Source of the DNA: a virus
Virus genome (UHGV): UHGV-0337515
Direction: 5' to 3' (one strand)
DNA: 18,996 nucleotides
Shown here: positions 4,790-13,961 of the stretch, in pieces
How positions within the stretch are numbered: position 1 is the stretch's first letter
Layout of the letters: each line of letters starts with the position of its first letter
Program-made: the position numbers and the translations under genes
The notes under the pieces: generated by a model
Told to the model about the DNA's origin: nothing
What the model saw: the letters and a program-made list of their open reading frames with translations, nothing else
Database searches by the model: none

Positions 4790-5643
4790 GCACCATCCTG
4801 AAATGGGCGGGAAATAAAACCGCCATTATGTCTGAACTGAAAAAACATCTTCCTGCTGGCCCGCGACTGGTTGAACCTTTCGCGGGTTCCTGTGCAGTGA
4901 TGATGGAGACGGAGTACCCCAGCTATCTTGTCGCGGATATTAATCCTGATTTAATCAACCTCTATAAAAAGGTTGCTGCTGATTGTGAATCGTTTATATC
5001 TCGCGCCAGAGTTTTATTTGAGATCGCAAACAGGGAGGTGGCTTATTACAACATAAGGCAGGAGTTTAATTACTCAACTGAAATTACTGATTTCATGAAA
5101 GCGGTATATTTCCTGTATCTCAATCGTCACGGTTACCGTGGTTTATGTCGCTATAACAAGAGCGGGCATTTCAACATTCCCTACGGTAATTATAAAAATC
5201 CGTATTTCCCTGAAAAAGAAATTCGCGCATTTGCAGAAAGGGCCCAGCGAGCAACGTTTATCTGCGCCAGCTTTGATGAAACGCTGGCGATGTTGAAGGC
5301 GGGGGATGTGGTGTATTGCGATCCGCCGTATGACGGTACGTTTTCCGGCTATCACACTGACGGCTTCACTGAAGATGACCAGTATCACCTGGCATCTGTT
5401 CTTGAACATCGGTCATCAGAAGGACATCCGGTCATTGTTTCTAACAGTGACACATCCCTGATCCGTTCGCTGTATCGCAATTTTACTCACCACTACATCA
5501 AGGCAAAACGCAGCATCGGTGTGGCAGCTGGCGAGGGTAAATCAGCAACAGAAATCATTGCTGTTTCCGGGCCGCGCTGCTGGGTGGGATTTGATTATTC
5601 GCGTGGCGTGGACAGTTCTGCCGTGTACGAGGTGCGTGTATGA
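4786..5643 (+). CDS. dam: DNA adenine methyltransferase (Dam-like, N6-adenine)
   Basis: Starts [11 protein letters not shown] (Dam N-terminal SAM-binding signature) and contains the DPPY catalytic motif ([10 protein letters not shown]). ATG at 4786 has GGAGGTG upstream and overlaps the preceding stop. The track extension from 4726 is unsupported. Confidence 0.88.
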
Positions 5644-8054
5644 GTCATGCCGATATGAGCGACTCTAGCGGCTTTAACGAGGCCGCTGCAGCATTTTCAT
5701 GGAACGGCCCGAAAAAGGCCATAAACCCTTATCTGGACCCGGCGGAAGTTGCGCCGGTTTCTGCGCTTTCAAACCTGATCACTCTGTATGCTGCCGATAA
5801 CGAGCAGGAACAGCTGCGCCGCGAGGAATTGAGTGAACAGGTCTGGGAGCGTTATTTCTTTAATGAATCCCGTGATCCTGTCCAGCGCGAAATGGAGCAG
5901 GATAAGCTCATTAGTCGGGCAAAGCTGGCGCATGAGCAGCAGCGTTTTAACCCGGACATGGTCATTCTGGCGGACGTCAGCGCCCAGCCCACCCACATCA
6001 GCAAGCCGCTGATGCAACGTATCGAATACTTCTGCAGCCTTGGCAGGCCAAAGGCTTATTCCCGCTATTTGCGTGAGACGATTAAGCCATGTCTGGAGCG
6101 ACTGGATTGTGTACGCGACAGTCAGCTATCCACTTCTTTTCGCTTTATGGCGAGCCATGAAGGGCTGGACGGCCTGCTGATCCTGCCTGAAATGAGTCAG
6201 GATCAGGTGAAACGCCTGTCCACCCTGGTAGCTGCGCATATGAGCATGTGCCTTGATGCAGCTTGTGGCGATTTGTATGCCACCGATGACGTTAAGCCAG
6301 AAGAAATCCGCAAGACATGGGAAAGGGTGGCAGCAGAAACCCTGCGACTGGATGTTATCCCACCTGCGTTTGAGCAACTCCGCCGGAAAAGAAACCGCCG
6401 TAAACCCGTGCCCTATGAACTCATTCCGGGTTCGCTGGCGCGTATGTTGTGCGCCGACTGGTGGTATCGGAAATTATGGAAGATGCGTTGCGAATGGCGG
6501 GAAGAGCAGTTGCGCGCTGTCTGCCTGGTCAGCAAAAAAGCATCTCCCTATGTCAGCTATGAAGCCGTGATGCATAAACGTGAGCAGCGCCGTAAGTCGC
6601 TGGAGTTTTTTCGTTCTCATGAACTGGTGAACGAAGACGGCGATACGCTGGAGATGGAAGACGTGGTAAACGCCAGCAGCAGCAACCCTGCGCATCGCCG
6701 CAATGAGATGATGGCCTGTGTTAAAGGTCTGGAGCTTATCGCGGAAATGCGCGGTGACTGCGCCGTTTTCTACACCATCACCTGTCCGTCACGTTTCCAT
6801 TCCACGCTAAATAACGGCAGACCAAACCCGACCTGGACAAACGCGACGGTAAGACAAAGCAGTGATTATCTGGTCGGCATGTTTGCTGCATTTCGTAAAG
6901 CGATGCACAAAGCCGGATTGCGCTGGTATGGCGTGCGGGTGGCTGAGCCGCATCATGACGGTACAGTTCACTGGCACCTGTTGTGTTTTATGCGCAAAAA
7001 AGATCGCCGAGCCATTACTGCTTTGTTGCGTAAGTTTGCCATTCGTGAAGACCGCGAGGAGCTGGGTAATAACACGGGACCACGCTTTAAGTCTGAGCTG
7101 ATAAACCCGCGCAAAGGTACGCCAACAAGCTACATCGCGAAATACATCAGTAAGAACATTGACGGGCGTGGTCTGGCTGGTGAGATCAGCAAGGAAACGG
7201 GTAAATCCCTGCGTGATAACGCTGAATACGTTAATGCCTGGGCGTCTCTGCATCGTGTTCAGCAATTTCGCTTCTTTGGTATTCCGGGGCGTCAGGCTTA
7301 CCGTGAACTGCGATTGCTGGCTGGTCAGGCGGCAAGGCAGCAGGGGGACAAAAAAGCAGGTGCGCCGGTACTGGATAACCCACGCCTTGATGCCATCCTG
7401 GCTGCTGCTGATGCTGGCTGTTTTGCCACCTACATCATGAAGCAGGGCGGCGTGCTGGTTCCCCGCAAATATCACCTTATCAGAACAGCTTATGAAATTA
7501 ACGAAGAGCCGACCGCCTATGGCGATCACGGTATTCGTATTTATGGCATCTGGTCACCCATTGCAGAGGGCAAGATCTGCACTCATGCCGTGAAGTGGAA
7601 AATGGTTCGTAAGGCCGTTGACGTTCAGGAGGCGGCAGCCGACCAGGGCGCTTGCGCCCCTTGGACTCGTGGCAATAACTGTCCCCTTGCTGAAAATTTG
7701 AACCAACAGGAGAAAGATAAATCAGCTGATGGGGACACCAGAACGGACATTATCCGCATGGATGACAAGGAGTTGCACGATTACCTGCACAGTCTGAGCA
7801 AAAAAGAGCGCCGGGAACTGGCAGCAAGGTTACGCCTGGTTAAGCCGAAATGGCGTAAAGACTACAAACAGCGAATTACAGATCATCAGCGACAGCAGCT
7901 CGTCTATGAACTGAAGTCCAGGGGATTTGATGGCAGCGAGAAAGAGGTCGATTTACTGCTTCGCGGCGGCAGTATTCCGTCAGGAGCAGGCCTGCGTATC
8001 TTCTATCGGAACCAGCGTTTGCAGGAAGATGATAAGTGGCGAAACCTGTATTAA
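5640..8054 (+). CDS. A: Replication initiator A (rolling-circle nicking protein, P2 gpA / 186 RepA family)
   Basis: 804-aa protein with an HUH-like motif ([10 protein letters not shown]) and paired tyrosines (SYIAKYISK) as in the P2 A active site. Start overlaps the dam stop (ATGA). Confidence 0.9.
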
Positions 8055-8146
8055 TTACGCGGGTTAACAATTCGTGCTCTTAATAATACCAGGCATATCA
8101 GGCTGATGAGCGTAAAAAAACGTTTTACATCAGTAAGATTATTATA

Positions 8147-8166
8147 TACTGTAAATATAAACAGTG
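8147..8166. promoter_or_regulatory. LexA (SOS) box TACTGTAAATATAAACAGTG overlapping a probable promoter of the tum-like operon
   Basis: CTGT-N8-ACAG palindrome; matches the LexA consensus TACTGTATATATATACAGTA at 16 of 20 positions. Lies about 40 bp upstream of the ORF at 8207, with TTTACA (8124-8129) and TATACT (8145-8150) promoter-like hexamers nearby. Confidence 0.65.
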
Positions 8167-8206
8167 GTTATGTATACAGTATTGCTTTGGTGTCATAGGA
8201 GGAAAG

Positions 8207-8395
8207 ATGCAGGACTATTTTTTGGAGTCTTTGAAGCTCCAGCGCATTGATTTTTTTCTTAAGCTTGTAGCGGCTAGTGAGTGTAGTGATGAAGAGAAGG
8301 GGCTGGCTCTGCAGTGGGTTTCTGAACTGACAGATGAACTCATGGCAAAAATCAGAAGCCACGAATACAACCGCTCAATGGATGTCATCAGCTGA
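8207..8395 (+). CDS. Small LexA-regulated protein (62 aa), possibly the N-terminal part of a Tum-like antirepressor
   Basis: Excellent SD AGGAGG 4 nt upstream of the ATG at 8207, directly downstream of the LexA box. Sits where 186 has tum. Confidence 0.6.
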   Translation: MQDYFLESLKLQRIDFFLKLVAASECSDEEKGLALQWVSELTDELMAKIRSHEYNRSMDVIS

Positions 8396-8405
8396 GGTGA
8401 CTTTT

Positions 8406-8639
8406 ATGCGCATTGAAATAATGATCGATAAAGAGCAGAAGATTAGCCAGTCTACCCTGGACGCCCTTGAATCCGAGCTTTACCGCAATCTGCGCCCCCT
8501 GTATCCCAAAACGGTAATCCGTATCCGTAAAGGTAGCTCTAACGGTGTGGAACTGACCGGACTGCAACTGGACGAAGAAAGAAAACAAGTGATGAAAATT
8601 TTGCAGAAGGTGTGGGAAGACGACAGCTGGCTGCATTGA
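8406..8639 (+). CDS. DinI-family protein (77 aa), like the C-terminal domain of 186 Tum
   Basis: MRIEIMIDKEQKISQSTLDALESELYRNLRPLYP…KQVMKILQKVWEDDSWLH parallels E. coli DinI (MRIEVTIAK…ILQETWE…DDW). ATG at 8406 with GAGGTGA upstream. Confidence 0.8.
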   Translation: MRIEIMIDKEQKISQSTLDALESELYRNLRPLYPKTVIRIRKGSSNGVELTGLQLDEERKQVMKILQKVWEDDSWLH

Positions 8640-8694
8640 TTTTGTCAATAGACGCTTGTTTTTACTAATCAAAAAGGGTTACATATGAGTGAGA

Positions 8695-8727
8695 GGCGAT
8701 GTCAATCAGATATCGCCTTGTTTTTTG
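8695..8727 (+). terminator. Weak candidate terminator hairpin between the DinI-like gene and the lipoprotein gene
   Basis: Inverted repeat ggcgat/atcgcc (8695-8700 / 8712-8717) followed by ttgttttttg. Confidence 0.3.
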
Positions 8728-8752
8728 TCAAGAAAAGAATAATAGGCTAAAA

Positions 8753-9430
8753 ATGAAAATTAATAATGTAGCGTTACCAATATCTCTTGCTGTAATCCTA
8801 ACTGGTTGCGTGCCACATGCTTCTAACCGAAATATCACTGCTATTGAAGTGGTGAAGCCAGCTATTGGGCAAAGTGCTACCGCCTACATGGGCGATCCCA
8901 TTATCACATCTGCTACTGGATTTAAAACGGACGTACTAGAACTTGGTGCGGCTAATGGTGCATTGTCTTCTATCGCTGCTGGTACATATTGCAGTGAGGG
9001 GAATGGAATTTACCGCAATTATCATAACCCTCAAGCTGTTGCGTTAAAAAATCTCTATGGGCAAATCGGTAACTATGTTGATTATGTTAGTTACGATGCT
9101 GCAAAAAATGAGATATCACCGCCAAATGGCACTTCTTATACTGCATCAGAAATTTCTATCAAACGTGTTCCTGATGGGCTGTGTCGAGTGAGTAATTCAT
9201 TGGTTAAGACTATCGAATATAATGGAAATGCAGGCGGTGTAATGAAGTTCACCTATCGTGAATTTGCAAACGATATGGCTCGTGCAGCATTTACAACAGA
9301 TTTTTCTGTAGATTCTAAGGGAAGTGATGTTATCGCTTACAAAGGTGCCAAGTTCAAAGTGAACAAGGCTGATAACTCGTCTATTTCTTATACAATTATT
9401 TCTGGCTTTGACAAGGCTGTCACGTTCTAG
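8753..9430 (+). CDS. Lipoprotein of unknown function (accessory gene)
   Basis: From ATG at 8753: MKINNVALPISLAVILTGC, a canonical lipoprotein signal peptide with lipobox LTGC. GC looks lower than the phage core genes. The track start at 8699 would put 18 residues in front of the signal peptide. Confidence 0.7.
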   Translation: MKINNVALPISLAVILTGCVPHASNRNITAIEVVKPAIGQSATAYMGDPIITSATGFKTDVLELGAANGALSSIAAGTYCSEGNGIYRNYHNPQAVALKNLYGQIGNYVDYVSYDAAKNEISPPNGTSYTASEISIKRVPDGLCRVSNSLVKTIEYNGNAGGVMKFTYREFANDMARAAFTTDFSVDSKGSDVIAYKGAKFKVNKADNSSISYTIISGFDKAVTF

Positions 9431-9533
9431 GTTTCACGCTTACTGAGTATGTTACGATTTTGCACATTCTGCATAAACGCGCATGTCTATGCTGCATGAG
9501 ATCGCATGATCGTTTGAGGATCTTTTGTGTTAA

Positions 9534-9559
9534 GGCCCGCCAGTTCTGGCGGGCTTTTG
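9534..9559 (+). terminator. Rho-independent terminator after the lipoprotein gene
   Basis: GC-rich hairpin gcccgccag / ctggcgggc (9535-9543 / 9546-9554) followed by TTTT. Confidence 0.6.
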
Positions 9560-9603
9560 CGTAGATCATGCAGGTGCATGAAAACCACTACATAAAGCGG
9601 GCA

Positions 9604-9622
9604 GGCGTGGCGGGGATACGAG
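9604..9622. other. cos-like sequence (candidate cohesive-end site)
   Basis: GGCGTGGCGGGGATACGAG; the first 13 nt match the remembered 19-nt cohesive end of 186 (GGCGTGGCGGGGA…) and P2 (GGCGAGGCGGGGAAAGCAC). Located between the A-side genes and Q, as in P2/186. Assignment from memory. Confidence 0.35.
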
Positions 9623-9660
9623 CGCGCGCAACCTGATTTGATTGAGAAAGTTTGGCTAGT

Positions 9661-9717
9661 CTTCTGATAAGTCGGAGGTCATGTGATGGGTTACTGTAGT
9701 AGAGGGTAATATCAGAA
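9661..9717. repeat. 9-bp inverted repeat (cttctgata … tatcagaag) flanking a 39-bp spacer, just upstream of the cassette promoter
   Basis: Arms at 9661-9669 and 9709-9717 are exact reverse complements. Confidence 0.4.
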
Positions 9718-9724
9718 GAGGGTT

Positions 9725-9753
9725 TTGACTTGAGGTGTAGTTGCAGTATTATA
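9725..9753 (+). promoter_or_regulatory. Candidate sigma70 promoter of the two-gene cassette (TTGACT-16/17 bp-TATTAT)
   Basis: -35 TTGACT at 9725-9730 and -10 TATTAT at 9747-9752, followed by AAGGA (9761-9765) and ATG at 9775. Confidence 0.55.
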
Positions 9754-9774
9754 AAAAGAAAAAGGATCTTTCTT

Positions 9775-10506
9775 ATGTACAGATTGTGGGTTTTATGGGG
9801 TTGTATCTTTGTTCTTCTACTTATTATCATGGGGTGCATTCCGTTTTCACCGTTTGAAAAATGGTGGTTTATAGTTAATTTCATGTCAAATGTAAACATA
9901 ATTCGTGCTTTTCTATCAGTATTAATACTATTTTTAGTTGCTTATATCTTGCTGGTCGGTGCATTTCATCAAAGATATTCATTGAGATTAGAGCAACTTA
10001 GTTTTGGTGGTATTAATATTTTACTAAATAAGTCTGATCTTCTTTTTAAAAAGAGCGTAAAAAATTATCTGGATACGAAGCGAACATTATTTAAATTTGA
10101 TCCGAATTATGACTCAATTGAAGAAGTTTTAAACTCATATTATGAGTGCTATAAATTCATTAGAGATGAAATGAAATTACTAGATGTGAAGAAAAAAAGA
10201 GATAAAAAACTGTATTTACTTTCAAATGAAATTTTGAAAACGTTAAACTCTTTTTTAACAAAGCATCAAAATAATTATCGGAGATGGCATAAATATGTTT
10301 CAGATAATGATAAAGTGACCACAAAGGATAGAGACCCTAACGGCGAATTTATATCATTGCCGTATCATTTAACCCCTATAAGTACTATACAAAAGCATTA
10401 TTATCATTTTAGTCAAGTATTGGAAGGTTTTAAAGAAGTAAACGATTTCTTCAATGATAAGGTAGTCAAAGAGTTTGATATAAATGTTGATAAATGGAGT
10501 GAATAA
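9775..10506 (+). CDS. Membrane protein with two N-terminal transmembrane helices and a ~170-aa helical C-terminal domain; candidate defence effector
   Basis: From ATG at 9775: hydrophobic helices LWVLWGCIFVLLLIIMGCIPF and IIRAFLSVLILFLVAYILLVGAF. Very AT-rich compared with flanking phage genes. Stop overlaps the next gene's start (TAATG). The track start at 9730 is TTG inside the promoter. Confidence 0.75.
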   Translation: MYRLWVLWGCIFVLLLIIMGCIPFSPFEKWWFIVNFMSNVNIIRAFLSVLILFLVAYILLVGAFHQRYSLRLEQLSFGGINILLNKSDLLFKKSVKNYLDTKRTLFKFDPNYDSIEEVLNSYYECYKFIRDEMKLLDVKKKRDKKLYLLSNEILKTLNSFLTKHQNNYRRWHKYVSDNDKVTTKDRDPNGEFISLPYHLTPISTIQKHYYHFSQVLEGFKEVNDFFNDKVVKEFDINVDKWSE

Positions 10507-11123
10507 TGCATAAGACGTTTCTTAGTTATCATCATGCTAACGAACAAGATCTCAAAGATGAGATTATTGATTTATTCGGAGGAGAATCGTTTATTGATAA
10601 GTCGGTAAGTGATGGTGACATTAGTACAACTAACACTGATGAAACAATAATGAGGACTATTCGTGAGGATTTTTTAAAAGACTCAACGGTTACTGTCGTT
10701 CTTATTGGAACGGAAACCAAAAATCGTCCATTTGTAAACTCTGAAATTCAAGCATCACTCTGGGGAGAAAACTATAATGGTCTAATTGGTGTTATCAGAG
10801 ATGAAATTTACGACAGTGTGTTTACTCCTGCAGTATGTGCAGATCCATCATGCGGATGTTCTATAAGTCTAAGAACGCCAGGTTGGGGATATGATTATTA
10901 TTTGCCTTATCTGGTTAGAAAGAATCATGTTTATGAAAAAACAGTTCCCCATTATAATGACTCTGACGTATATTGTGCATTGGTAAAATACTCTGTCTTT
11001 ATTAAAAATCCTGAGTATTATATTGATCAGGCATTTAACAAGCGTAAGTTGATGGAACCAGCTGCTAAACGAAATCCATCGGATGTTCCTGCAATTCGCA
11101 GCTCATCAATTTTTAACTGGTAA
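10506..11123 (+). CDS. TIR-like domain protein (ThsB/DUF1863-like), candidate defence sensor or NADase
   Basis: N-terminus MHKTFLSYHHANEQD fits the TIR first-strand signature (compare ThsB …VFFSFHYQD… as remembered); central TVTVVLIGTETKNRPFVNSEIQ fits the TIR core strand plus conserved Glu region. Translationally coupled to the upstream membrane protein. AT-rich. Confidence 0.7.
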   Translation: MHKTFLSYHHANEQDLKDEIIDLFGGESFIDKSVSDGDISTTNTDETIMRTIREDFLKDSTVTVVLIGTETKNRPFVNSEIQASLWGENYNGLIGVIRDEIYDSVFTPAVCADPSCGCSISLRTPGWGYDYYLPYLVRKNHVYEKTVPHYNDSDVYCALVKYSVFIKNPEYYIDQAFNKRKLMEPAAKRNPSDVPAIRSSSIFNW

Positions 11124-11128
11124 TAAGA

Positions 11129-11166
11129 GGGTGCATAAACATTATGCACCCATATGCTATTTTTTA
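11129..11166. terminator. Terminator hairpin between the convergent cassette and Q
   Basis: Perfect 10-bp inverted repeat gggtgcataa / ttatgcaccc (11129-11138 / 11142-11151) with a 3-nt loop, followed by a T-run at 11160-11165. Confidence 0.5.
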
Positions 11167-12198
11167 ACTTTGGAGAGAATATGGTAAAAAATTAATAATT
11201 GTGTTTCCTATCCATTGATTTAATTGTTCTATACGTTTTTGTAAGGGGATAAGTTCGTTACGAACAAATACATTACTTGCCTTCTCCACATCCCCAAACC
11301 CCCCAACATTATTCGGCATAATACCCATCATTTGTGGCGGTACACGGTGCGCCGCCATCATGTCATCACGGCTGACGTTCTTGATATTCAAAAACTCATC
11401 CTTCGCCGCGACTTCTGACAACGGGATGATCTGAAGCCCGTCCTTTTTGCCGTTTGGCGAGTACATAAATAGGTTACGGAAGTTACCAGGACCTTTGGCA
11501 CTTTTCATCGCGTTGCGGAGGTTGTTTACATCCTCCTGGTTCTGCGCGGCGTCGGTCATATACATGATGAAGCCTGCATGACTGCCGTTAATGTAATACT
11601 TGCGGCGGAACAGCGTGGCAGACTCGTTGAGCAGGGCGGATGGAATAGCAGAAAGATAACCGGGCAGGCCGTAGATTTCCTGGTTGATGTCCGGTTCCAT
11701 CAGATGAAAGATGCTGCCTTTCGTGAACTGATATGGCTGGGTGATCATACCGTATTGCACAAACCAGTAGGTATCTAGGTCTAACCCGCGTCGGGTGTAT
11801 TTTGCCAGAGCAGGCTCAAGGGCGATAACTTCACCGAACCGGTTCGTGCGTTTCTCCAGGTAGGCGTTACCAAATACCAGATAGTCCTGCACAAAACGTG
11901 AAAAAGCCTGCTGGCTGAGCAGCGGGTGAGGGATGTAGGTGCTGGTCAGAATGTTGCATTTCACTGCAATCGGTGAACTGTGGTGTACGGCTGCGCGGAA
12001 TGTTCGTGCCAGTCCGTCAAAACTCACTGGCGGCTCATACCAGCGATCTGTCTGTACGCATTCCACATAGTCCAGCAGTTCACGGCGGTCCAGAACCGGA
12101 ACGGGATCGCCGAAGCTGAATGCTTCGGCTGAAGTCTGGTTTTTATGCTGGATCTGATTCATCGCCGCTGCGCGGTTTTTCTTACTCTTTCCCATCAA
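11164..12198 (-). CDS. Q: Portal protein (P2 gpQ family)
   Basis: 344 aa starting MMGKSKKNRAA…; strong similarity throughout to remembered P2 gpQ (…DPVPVLDRRELLDYVEC…YEPPVSF…NESATLFRRKYY…VFVRNELIPLQ…). Confidence 0.92.
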   Translation of the reverse strand: MMGKSKKNRAAAMNQIQHKNQTSAEAFSFGDPVPVLDRRELLDYVECVQTDRWYEPPVSFDGLARTFRAAVHHSSPIAVKCNILTSTYIPHPLLSQQAFSRFVQDYLVFGNAYLEKRTNRFGEVIALEPALAKYTRRGLDLDTYWFVQYGMITQPYQFTKGSIFHLMEPDINQEIYGLPGYLSAIPSALLNESATLFRRKYYINGSHAGFIMYMTDAAQNQEDVNNLRNAMKSAKGPGNFRNLFMYSPNGKKDGLQIIPLSEVAAKDEFLNIKNVSRDDMMAAHRVPPQMMGIMPNNVGGFGDVEKASNVFVRNELIPLQKRIEQLNQWIGNTIINFLPYSLQS

Positions 12199-13961
12199 AA
12201 AATCTCCACAATATTGCTGGTATTGGCGGACTCGCCCTGCAGCGGTTCGTTAAACAGTGCGTGCATTGTTGCCCAGGCCAGATCGGCATGGCTGGCTTCT
12301 TCGCTGCGGCTGGCTTCATAGGTCGGGCGGTTGCCGCTGGCGGTGGTGGCGCGACGGATCGCCATGAATGACTGCGCAATGTCGGTGTGCCCGGCGTCAA
12401 ACTCCAGACGGCGGTGGCTGATAATGTCGTAGGCCTTGAGTACTAGGGCGTTTTTAACGTTGGGGTTGTAGACAAACTCCCGGACGGCAGGAAAGAACGC
12501 TTTCACGTTCTCGTAAACCCCGTGACCAACGCCGGTTGAGTCGATGCCGATGTATGTCACGTTGTACTGTTCGGTCAGTTTTTTGATGGCGTCCGCCTGG
12601 GCGCGGAAGTCCATCCCGCGCCACTGGTGACGCTCAAGAATACGGAACTTACCGCCCGGCACAGCTGGCGGAGCCACCACCACGCACCCGGCACTGTCAC
12701 CGTTCTGCGTACCTTTTGCTGGGTCATAACCGATCCACACCTCGCGCCAGCCAAACGGGCGCAGGGCCAGTGCATGAAAGTCGGTCCAGACTTCCCAACT
12801 GTCCACCATGCACGCCTGCAGTTCGCTGAGCGGGAACACGGACGCGAGATCGTCCACAAACTCGCACATCAGCAGGTTCTGGTATTCGTCCGGGCTGTAC
12901 TCCATGCGCAGCTGGTCGAGGTCGAACAGGTTACAGCCGCCGCGCACCGCATCTTCCACGGTGACTATCTGGCGGTATTGCCCGTCTGCGCACAGCAGGC
13001 CGGGGGCCAGATTGATGTGGGACAGGTCGATGTCCACCTTGTCAGCTTTGTTGCGTCCACGGTTGAACAGCGCACCGGACCAGAACGGATAAGCACTGTG
13101 GGTCAGGCTGGATGGCGTGGAAAAATAGGTTTGTCGCCATTTCTTGTGAATAGCCATCCCGGAAGCCACTTTGCGCAGCTCCTGAAATTTCGGTATCCAG
13201 AAATATTCATCCAGATACAGGTTGCCGTGATAACTCTGGGCCGTGCGGGCATTGGTGCCGAGGAAGTAAAGCGTGGCTCCGTTAGGAAGCACCATCGGAT
13301 CGCCTTTTAGCTCCACCTCGACTTCTTTGGCGAAGTCGATGATGTATTGTTTAAAGACGTGGGCCTGAGCCTTACTGGCAGAAAGGAAAATCTGGTTACG
13401 TCCGGTAAGCAGGGCGTCAATCAGGGCTTCACGGGCAAAGTAAAAGGTCGCGCCGATCTGGCGTGACTTCAGCAGGTTGCGGATGCGGTTGGTTTTTCCG
13501 GCTTCCCACCAGTGGCGCTGGTAGTTGAACATGGAGGAATGGAAAATTTCTTCCAGCTTCTCAATCTGTTCATCGGTGAAAACATTCTTTTCCGGCTGAC
13601 GACGTGGGCCTTTGTTGCGGTTGGCAACGTTAGGGTTTAAGTCGGCTTCGTTGCCGCCATTGTTAAACTTGCCGATCCGCGCGTGGCGCTCAGACTGGCG
13701 TGCCAGCAGGTCAATTTCTTTGAAATCTTTCCCTTCTTTGTGCTCCTTCATAATGAGCTGGCAGTAGCGTGCGGCGGTGGTGAGCTGCATCTGATCCAGC
13801 GGCCCATAGTCACCCCACTTGTCGCGTTTTTTCCAGCTGTGAATGGTTGCAACTTTCTCGCCCAGCATTTCAGCAATGCGGGCGACGCGGTATCCCTGAA
13901 AGTACAGCAGCATAGCCTGCCGACGGGGATCGAGATCTGCGGGTGTCAGTGTGGTGTTCAT
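12195..13961 (-). CDS. P: Terminase large subunit (P2 gpP family)
   Basis: 588-aa ORF immediately upstream of Q on the same strand, size and position of P2 gpP; overlaps the Q start. Confidence 0.88.
   Translation of the reverse strand: MNTTLTPADLDPRRQAMLLYFQGYRVARIAEMLGEKVATIHSWKKRDKWGDYGPLDQMQLTTAARYCQLIMKEHKEGKDFKEIDLLARQSERHARIGKFNNGGNEADLNPNVANRNKGPRRQPEKNVFTDEQIEKLEEIFHSSMFNYQRHWWEAGKTNRIRNLLKSRQIGATFYFAREALIDALLTGRNQIFLSASKAQAHVFKQYIIDFAKEVEVELKGDPMVLPNGATLYFLGTNARTAQSYHGNLYLDEYFWIPKFQELRKVASGMAIHKKWRQTYFSTPSSLTHSAYPFWSGALFNRGRNKADKVDIDLSHINLAPGLLCADGQYRQIVTVEDAVRGGCNLFDLDQLRMEYSPDEYQNLLMCEFVDDLASVFPLSELQACMVDSWEVWTDFHALALRPFGWREVWIGYDPAKGTQNGDSAGCVVVAPPAVPGGKFRILERHQWRGMDFRAQADAIKKLTEQYNVTYIGIDSTGVGHGVYENVKAFFPAVREFVYNPNVKNALVLKAYDIISHRRLEFDAGHTDIAQSFMAIRRATTASGNRPTYEASRSEEASHADLAWATMHALFNEPLQGESANTSNIVEIF

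Follow-up and report, generated by a model that had tools for sequence, protein, structure and literature searches.

What does an exported lipoprotein do in the cargo region of a P2-like prophage? The question is raised by a gene at 8753-9430 (+) of UHGV virus genome UHGV-0337515, a DNA stretch of 18,996 nucleotides (hereafter, the window) that represents a Fels-2/P2-like (Felsduovirus-type) prophage. The gene is located between replication gene A and portal gene Q, at the old/tin hotspot of P2, as the initial annotation had it. It is an exported, lipobox-bearing, accessory, stand-alone gene of the 'moron' type and is under selection. The sequence is already present in databases (Fels-2 STM2726; PHROG 1353), with no function attached to the name. 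The reading put forward here is that of an envelope-acting factor for lysogenic conversion or exclusion, with exclusion at a probability of roughly 0.35.

The gene, its product and its family

Translation from 8753 yields 225 amino acids followed by a stop and begins with MKINNVALPISLAVILTGC. The length agrees with the initial annotation, and the start is the same as that of WP_000700647.1, called by the Prokaryotic Genome Annotation Pipeline (PGAP, NCBI) in identical Escherichia coli loci. An open reading frame (ORF) of 243 amino acids from the ATG at 8699, the start used in the Fels-2 record, was set aside in favour of 8753, because homologues align from the MK start, PGAP agrees, and the 18-codon extension upstream of 8753 carries mostly non-synonymous changes (2/3 changes non-synonymous), against a ratio of non-synonymous to synonymous substitution rates (dN/dS) of about 0.05 in the gene body. 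Comparison with 94%-identical E. coli alleles gives a dS of 0.26 and a dN of 0.014-0.018 (dN/dS 0.05-0.07), a substitution pattern which indicates that a functional protein is encoded and is under strong purifying selection. The lower content of guanine plus cytosine (GC) that had been remarked on is borne out: 0.406, with 0.31 at third codon positions (GC3), versus 0.53, 0.49 and 0.56 in the core genes A, Q and P (GC3 about 0.57).

The precursor carries a signal peptide and lipobox in residues 1-19, leaving a mature protein of ~206 amino acids that is predicted to be all-beta. A charged and then hydrophobic N-terminus leads to the lipobox L16-T17-G18-C19 (MKINNVALPISLAVILTG followed by C), which fits [LVI][ASTVI][GAS]C; G18 and C19 are shared by all of 22 homologues, and the LTGC lipobox first pointed out can be retained. 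Residue +2 after Cys19 is Val, not Asp. Lipidation by Lgt, signal peptidase II (LspA) and Lnt, and Lol sorting to the outer membrane when Asp is not at +2, are established rules. According to these rules, Cys19 would be lipidated by Lgt, LspA and Lnt, and with Val at +2 the outer membrane would be the destination in the Lol pathway. Two further cysteines, Cys80 and Cys144, do not vary within the closer subfamily and probably form a periplasmic disulfide.

A full-length match was obtained with PHROG 1353 ('unknown function'; expectation value (E) 3.1e-105; residues 1-223 on profile positions 1-230 of 230). This match (E 3e-105), the more than 2,400 clusters of the family and the dN/dS of 0.05-0.07 exclude a chance ORF. 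Beyond PHROG 1353, PHROG matches were confined to 'unknown' families (E>0.03). The protein had no match in Pfam at E<=1 and none in PADLOC; NCBIfam returned one chance-level match (14 bits, cut-off 366 bits), and single-sequence and profile searches of solved structures (PDB) gave chance-level matches only. That no specific family is recognised, as originally stated, therefore holds for Pfam, PADLOC, PDB and NCBIfam alike. Pfam matched none of 64 diverse relatives at E<=0.01, and in 8 longer relatives nothing was found except a trypsin domain fused in one protein. In this protein (P0208; metagenomic, 455 amino acids), the whole module (residues 1 to about 235, lipobox ITGC) is followed by a trypsin-like serine protease domain at the C-terminus (PF13365, 1.2e-26), which may hint that periplasmic proteases are partners of the family.

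A family profile search of 1.84 billion representative proteins, clustered at 50% identity, gave 2,434 clusters at E<=1e-3 and 1,256 at E<=1e-10, nearly all of 210-240 amino acids. Members with names are given as 'hypothetical' or 'putative lipoprotein' in Vibrio, Pseudoalteromonas, Methylotuvimicrobium, Neptunomonas, Paraglaciecola, Ferrimonas, Rheinheimera, and Flavobacterium. A lipobox is present in 237 of 268 near-full-length members (about 88%), with Asp at +2 in 0 of these 237; others have ordinary signal peptides. Conservation is highest in the C-terminal 80 residues (Y-x-G ... (F/Y)-YRE-F ... AR-x-AFT-x-D ... YKGA), in which Y168 and E170 never vary and R177, D187, and K197 hardly do.

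AlphaFold2, run with 22 homologues, gave an all-beta model of fair confidence, with 17 strands (mean pLDDT 80; 103 residues at >=90). Foldseek found no match at E<=0.001 for the full-length model in PDB or BFVD, and the C-terminal domain model (pLDDT 81) reached a best E of 0.6 against PDB; the best TM-scores in these fold searches were 0.2-0.4, over short hairpins only. The modelled fold may be a new one, or it may simply escape detection by Foldseek.

Position in the hotspot and distribution

The gene is carried on an exchangeable cassette (8638-9480, +), delimited by blastn breakpoints against two E. coli prophages with the same flanks and other content: in one (L002), 82 bp lie between dinI and the backbone; in the other (L003), a 1.3-kb insert with two ORFs is present. 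The latter is an alternative cassette (L003 1412-2082, E. coli A14 prophage) that encodes two hypothetical proteins of 71 and 151 amino acids. Two features that mark a moron are found, namely presence or absence between otherwise collinear phages and a deviant GC (0.41 vs 0.49-0.56).

The gene had been credited with its own terminator. A strong hairpin is indeed found 104 nucleotides past the stop (9534-9560, +; GC-rich stem followed by UUUU; free energy (dG) -22 kcal/mol, z-score (z) -3.9). The surrounding segment (9481-9631) was present in all inspected loci, with or without the lipoprotein gene or with a different cassette; homology to Fels-2 ends at 9631. Since the terminator lies outside the cassette, in backbone common to gene-free loci, it is a resident element of the hotspot and not the gene's own, and it serves whatever gene lies before it. 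From these comparisons, the A-Q hotspot comprises at least two independently exchanged slots split by the resident terminator, an inner one after dinI and an outer one adjoining the portal gene. The lipoprotein gene occupies the inner, dinI-proximal slot; its initial placing next to a cos-proximal hotspot is not supported, the real cos-proximal defence cargo being a pair of genes for a transmembrane (TM) and a TIR protein.

The remaining features are arranged as follows. The integrase (613-1800, -) is followed by replication endonuclease A (5640-8054, +), a 62-amino-acid ORF matching PHROG 698 (8207-8395, +) and, in the same operon as that ORF, a DinI/Tum-like gene (8406-8639, +; Pfam DinI 8.7e-23; PGAP annotation), which lies directly upstream of the lipoprotein gene and belongs to the backbone outside the cassette. 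Beyond the terminator are a membrane protein with no family match (9775-10506, +; GC 0.29) and a ThsB-like TIR protein (10506-11123, +; GC 0.36; Pfam PF08937 1e-14; PADLOC ThsB 6.5e-12), then portal Q (11164-12198, -) and terminase P (12195-13961, -). A second low-GC stretch (1601-2400; GC 0.34-0.38) with strong negative GC skew surrounds a 191-amino-acid ORF (2040-2615, -), adjoins the integrase and presumably takes in the region of the immunity repressor.

The same gene is found in the same place in Fels-2 (STM2726, 99% identical in protein sequence; PHROG 1353), after dinI and before the portal-proximal cargo, but the neighbouring cargo differs, with a 565-amino-acid protein in Fels-2 and TM+TIR in the window. 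The protein is 100% identical in 24 Klebsiella phage records (~33-kb genomes that look P2-like) and in E. coli prophages; among the Klebsiella carriers are prophages named for hosts of sequence types (ST) ST11, ST258, ST437, and ST512. Proteins of Acinetobacter and Moraxella temperate phages are 24-27% identical.

Among 5,426 complete E. coli genomes, the cassette was present in 50, always chromosomal and in single copy; ~1,281 genomes matched at least part of the hotspot region 8000-11200. The TM+TIR module was found in 42 of the 5,426, and 8 genomes have both it and the lipoprotein gene. A scan of one genome per species recovered one locus only and was uninformative on distribution. In 46 viral loci (IMG/VR), a dinI-like gene is directly upstream in 41; downstream, these 46 loci and the window together fall into 25 unrelated clusters of DNA. 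Genes following the lipoprotein gene in sampled genomes include AIPR, DUF4145, a STAS-like set, a 463-amino-acid hypothetical protein, and three hypotheticals. The portal gene lies 0.4-3.6 kb downstream; at 0.4-0.6 kb, in 4 loci, little space is left for other cargo. Because of the patchy presence, the breakpoints and the varied downstream cargo, the lipoprotein gene is regarded as an independent optional module, not a core or structural gene; its homologues, likewise, are not conserved structural core genes. The accessory status assumed at the outset thus stands, at 50 carriers versus ~1,281 genomes with hotspot matches.

On other replicons, a family member lies amid tail genes of an Acinetobacter siphophage, adjoining a toxin-antitoxin pair; one is present in a Moraxella phage, one in a Klebsiella island with serine recombinases and putAbiC, and others in Pantoea and Citrobacter-type prophages with OLD-like nucleases. 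Further members adjoin an integrase and a helix-turn-helix gene, a group II intron and an OLD-like gene, or IS110. In these contexts the family is met repeatedly as a lone gene, on mobile elements unrelated to one another and in many cases next to defence genes. Two E. coli IncFIB plasmids (95-108 kb) carry homologues that are 37-38% identical, with lipobox LAGC (L097 3956-4633; L098 3926-4603); these stand alone, on the strand opposite to their neighbours, and have lost the YRE...AR.AFT.D motif. The plasmids are non-mobilizable, encode a DnaB-like helicase, a Doc toxin and a GNAT toxin-antitoxin pair, and are probably phage-plasmids.

Transcription and the SOS response

A perfect LexA box, CTGTAAATATAAACAG, is located at 8149-8164 (+), before the operon of the 62-amino-acid ORF and the dinI/tum-like gene. 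By analogy, the LexA box, the ORF and the DinI/Tum-like gene correspond to the SOS-inducible antirepressor arrangement of 186. Between dinI and the start codon of the lipoprotein gene, within the cassette, lies an 11-bp hairpin followed by a U-run (8693-8719, +; dG -16.9, z -4.0). In the 94%-identical allele, one C-G pair of its stem is exchanged for U-A, a compensatory change, and one G-U pair for G-C; the stem is maintained by these changes, which argues that the structure matters. Two roles come into question, that of a leader structure and that of a partial terminator or insulator for the SOS operon; the hairpin may act as an attenuator that sets SOS-driven transcription into the lipoprotein gene.

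Neither reading of the sequence nor a consensus scan revealed a convincing sigma-70 promoter fitting the start codon between this hairpin and the ATG, and transcription most likely enters from upstream, through the hairpin, for that reason. A weak, uncertain candidate (TTGTCA-N16-ACTAAT; 8642-8669, +) lies in the cassette upstream of the hairpin; it was read from the sequence and missed by the consensus scan, and in the divergent allele ACTAAT is replaced by AATACT. The gene is thus most likely transcribed, at least in part, by read-through from the LexA-controlled dinI/tum operon, which would be the source of transcription, perhaps together with the weak promoter in the cassette. Given an SOS-controlled source upstream, the level of the lipoprotein should rise upon DNA damage. 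In a microarray study of Salmonella carrying Fels-2, exposure to the mutagen MX raised expression of STM2726-STM2727-STM2728, a predicted operon, with 3/3 genes significant and inductions of 2.6- to 14.8-fold (PMC2225428).

Proposed exclusion at the envelope and its rivals

As an exclusion factor, the protein would work in the cell envelope, either of the lysogen or after induction, and would bind an outer-membrane or periplasmic component needed by incoming phages; adsorption, receptor opening or DNA passage would be blocked by this binding. A supply boosted by the SOS response would fit a role like that of Llp, in which progeny are not wasted on induced cells and debris. A plausible case for exclusion is provided by the recurrence of the family on mobile elements beside defence genes, the validated hotspot, the accessory status, the low GC, the SOS link, and the covariation in the hairpin. 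Defence cargo of the A-Q hotspot of P2-like phages has been validated experimentally (PMC9122126; PMC9519451); cargo of other kinds, namely toxins and partition systems, is also cited by Rousset et al. (PMC9122126). WP_000700647 is given as 'hypothetical' only in the hotspot tables of Rousset et al., and section 10 and the term matches in the supplement of that paper do not include the protein among the systems cloned (PMC9122126). A lipoprotein occurs among the defence systems of Vassallo et al.; as far as PADLOC models show, it is a different protein.

Precedents for the proposed mode of action exist. Cor (phi80/N15/T1) and Llp (T5) are likewise phage-encoded, Sec/Lsp-exported outer-membrane lipoproteins and single accessory genes, and Llp is made during lytic growth, a parallel to the SOS link described here. 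They are about 60-80 amino acids long, and the mature protein studied here is about three times larger; no relation in sequence or fold was detected with Pfam, NCBIfam, PADLOC, PDB or BFVD, as far as these include models for Cor or Llp. TraT (F-like plasmids) and Bor (lambda) are also outer-membrane lipoproteins of mobile elements that change the cell surface, as is proposed here, and TraT, at about 240 amino acids, is similar in length. Their Pfam entries, PF05818 (TraT) and PF06291 (lambda Bor), were not matched by the protein (E<=1) or by 64 relatives (E<=0.01); the protein is predicted to be all-beta and has no PDB neighbour. Cor, Llp and TraT exclude in this manner by unrelated folds. With P2 old/tin and the systems of Rousset 2022 and Vassallo 2022, the gene shares the A-Q hotspot and the nature of patchy, exchangeable cargo, but those systems are mostly cytoplasmic nucleases, NTPases, TIR proteins or retrons, whereas this one is an exported lipoprotein with no PADLOC match, in the inner slot.

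Several points weigh against exclusion. Neither sequence nor fold searches gave a match in Pfam, PADLOC, PDB or BFVD, hence none to any exclusion proteins that those libraries may include, and at ~206 amino acids the mature protein far exceeds Cor or Llp in size. The strong purifying selection, together with 99-100% identity between Klebsiella, Salmonella, and E. coli, is unlike what is seen for an arms-race protein. P2-type phages are thought to use lipopolysaccharide (LPS), which a periplasm-facing lipoprotein could not mask; with LPS as the presumed receptor, self-exclusion is unlikely unless the lipoprotein is surface-exposed. The literature on STM2726, WP_000700647, EcHS_A0921, phrog_1353, and YP_001718750 yielded one microarray paper only and no reported phenotype for any homologue. 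Three distant members stand in ordinary chromosomal neighbourhoods with no marks of mobile elements, from which the ancestral role of the family was probably a housekeeping function in the envelope. Finally, the promoter assignment for the lipoprotein gene is uncertain. A wider version of exclusion appears unlikely to us: the protein would be the enterobacterial, phage-borne member of a large family of envelope lipoproteins that has been captured repeatedly by temperate phages, phage-plasmids and islands as a single-gene exclusion or protection factor, a new exclusion class, and its C-terminal core (Y-x-G ... YRE ... AR.AFT.D) would recognise a conserved periplasmic or outer-membrane target.

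The conservation that sits badly with an arms race would suit a function directed at the host, and it is doubtful, though conceivable, that the gene serves host fitness or virulence unrelated to phages, by a changed envelope (serum or complement resistance, adhesion, tolerance of bile, antimicrobial peptides or stress). Such changes in the host envelope are brought about by lambda Bor and plasmid TraT; an outer-membrane-type lipoprotein is found here on prophages of pathogens, identical in Klebsiella and 99% identical in Fels-2; a CS1-type fimbrial operon adjoins one 80%-identical homologue; and, as noted above, the cargo of the hotspot is not always defensive. The protein shows no similarity to Bor, TraT or adhesin models, however, many members of the family belong to marine and free-living bacteria, and defence genes are repeatedly its neighbours. 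Rather less credit is given to an orphan protective gene whose product would inhibit, or give immunity to, an enzyme or toxin acting on the envelope (periplasmic protease, lysozyme or muramidase, bacteriocin, or effector of the type VI secretion system). The conserved polar residues Y168, E170, R177, D187, and K197 at the C-terminus suggest a specific binding site, the whole module is fused to a trypsin-like protease in P0208, a PDZ protein occurs ~1 kb away in small metagenomic contigs, and exported lipoproteins are known among such proteins (MliC; Tsi/Tai-type immunity proteins); yet an adjacent effector or toxin gene was seen in none of ~20 contexts inspected, and no fold match to known inhibitor families was obtained.

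That the gene serves the lytic growth of the phage itself once SOS is induced (lysis, release or remodelling of the envelope), and not the lysogen, is improbable. Such a role would agree with the place of the gene, which follows the LexA-controlled dinI/tum operon directly and shows no clear separate promoter, and with the induction of the Fels-2 counterpart by a DNA-damaging mutagen, but only 50 of about 1,281 hotspot-matching E. coli genomes carry the gene, which is far from the lysis cassette and has homologues at non-phage chromosomal sites. The outer-membrane subunit of a spanin (Rz1/LysC type) was ruled out by the length of 225 amino acids, the location in the A-Q hotspot and not in the lysis cassette, and the absence from most related prophages; such subunits are short lipoproteins, encoded within or beside the inner-membrane spanin gene, and occur in every functional phage of a group. 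Close to refuted is the view of the lipoprotein as third component of the adjoining TM+TIR (Thoeris-like) system. The three genes are consecutive and on the same strand, and a three-gene '2TM + 1TM + TIR' system from the P2-like phage AC1 was validated by Rousset et al. (PMC9122126), but both genes occur together in 8/50 lipoprotein loci and 8/42 TIR loci, 25 different cargoes are found downstream, and the backbone terminator separates the lipoprotein gene from the TM gene. The AC1 system was rejected as a counterpart: the published start of the AC1 insert is unmatched in the window, and its first ORF is another protein; the resemblance of TM+TIR to it is in concept, not in the sequence compared (the start of the AC1 insert). 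For the TM+TIR module (9775-11123), no partner of the ThsA type was seen.

As a prophage lipoprotein moron, the gene is of an ordinary kind; it stands out for a large family with no annotation or structural neighbour, for identity across genera, and for the SOS link. The map of the P2 hotspot is refined to at least two independent slots, the inner one wired to the SOS-controlled dinI/tum operon. The presence of an identical gene in P2-like prophages of Klebsiella hosts labelled ST11, ST258, ST437, and ST512, in addition to its occurrence in Salmonella and E. coli, makes it relevant to host range in phage therapy. Should exclusion prove the wrong reading, what is left is an unusually well-conserved dark lipoprotein of the envelope; should it prove right, a new and widespread family, acting as a single gene, would be added to the short list of phage defences at the level of the envelope.

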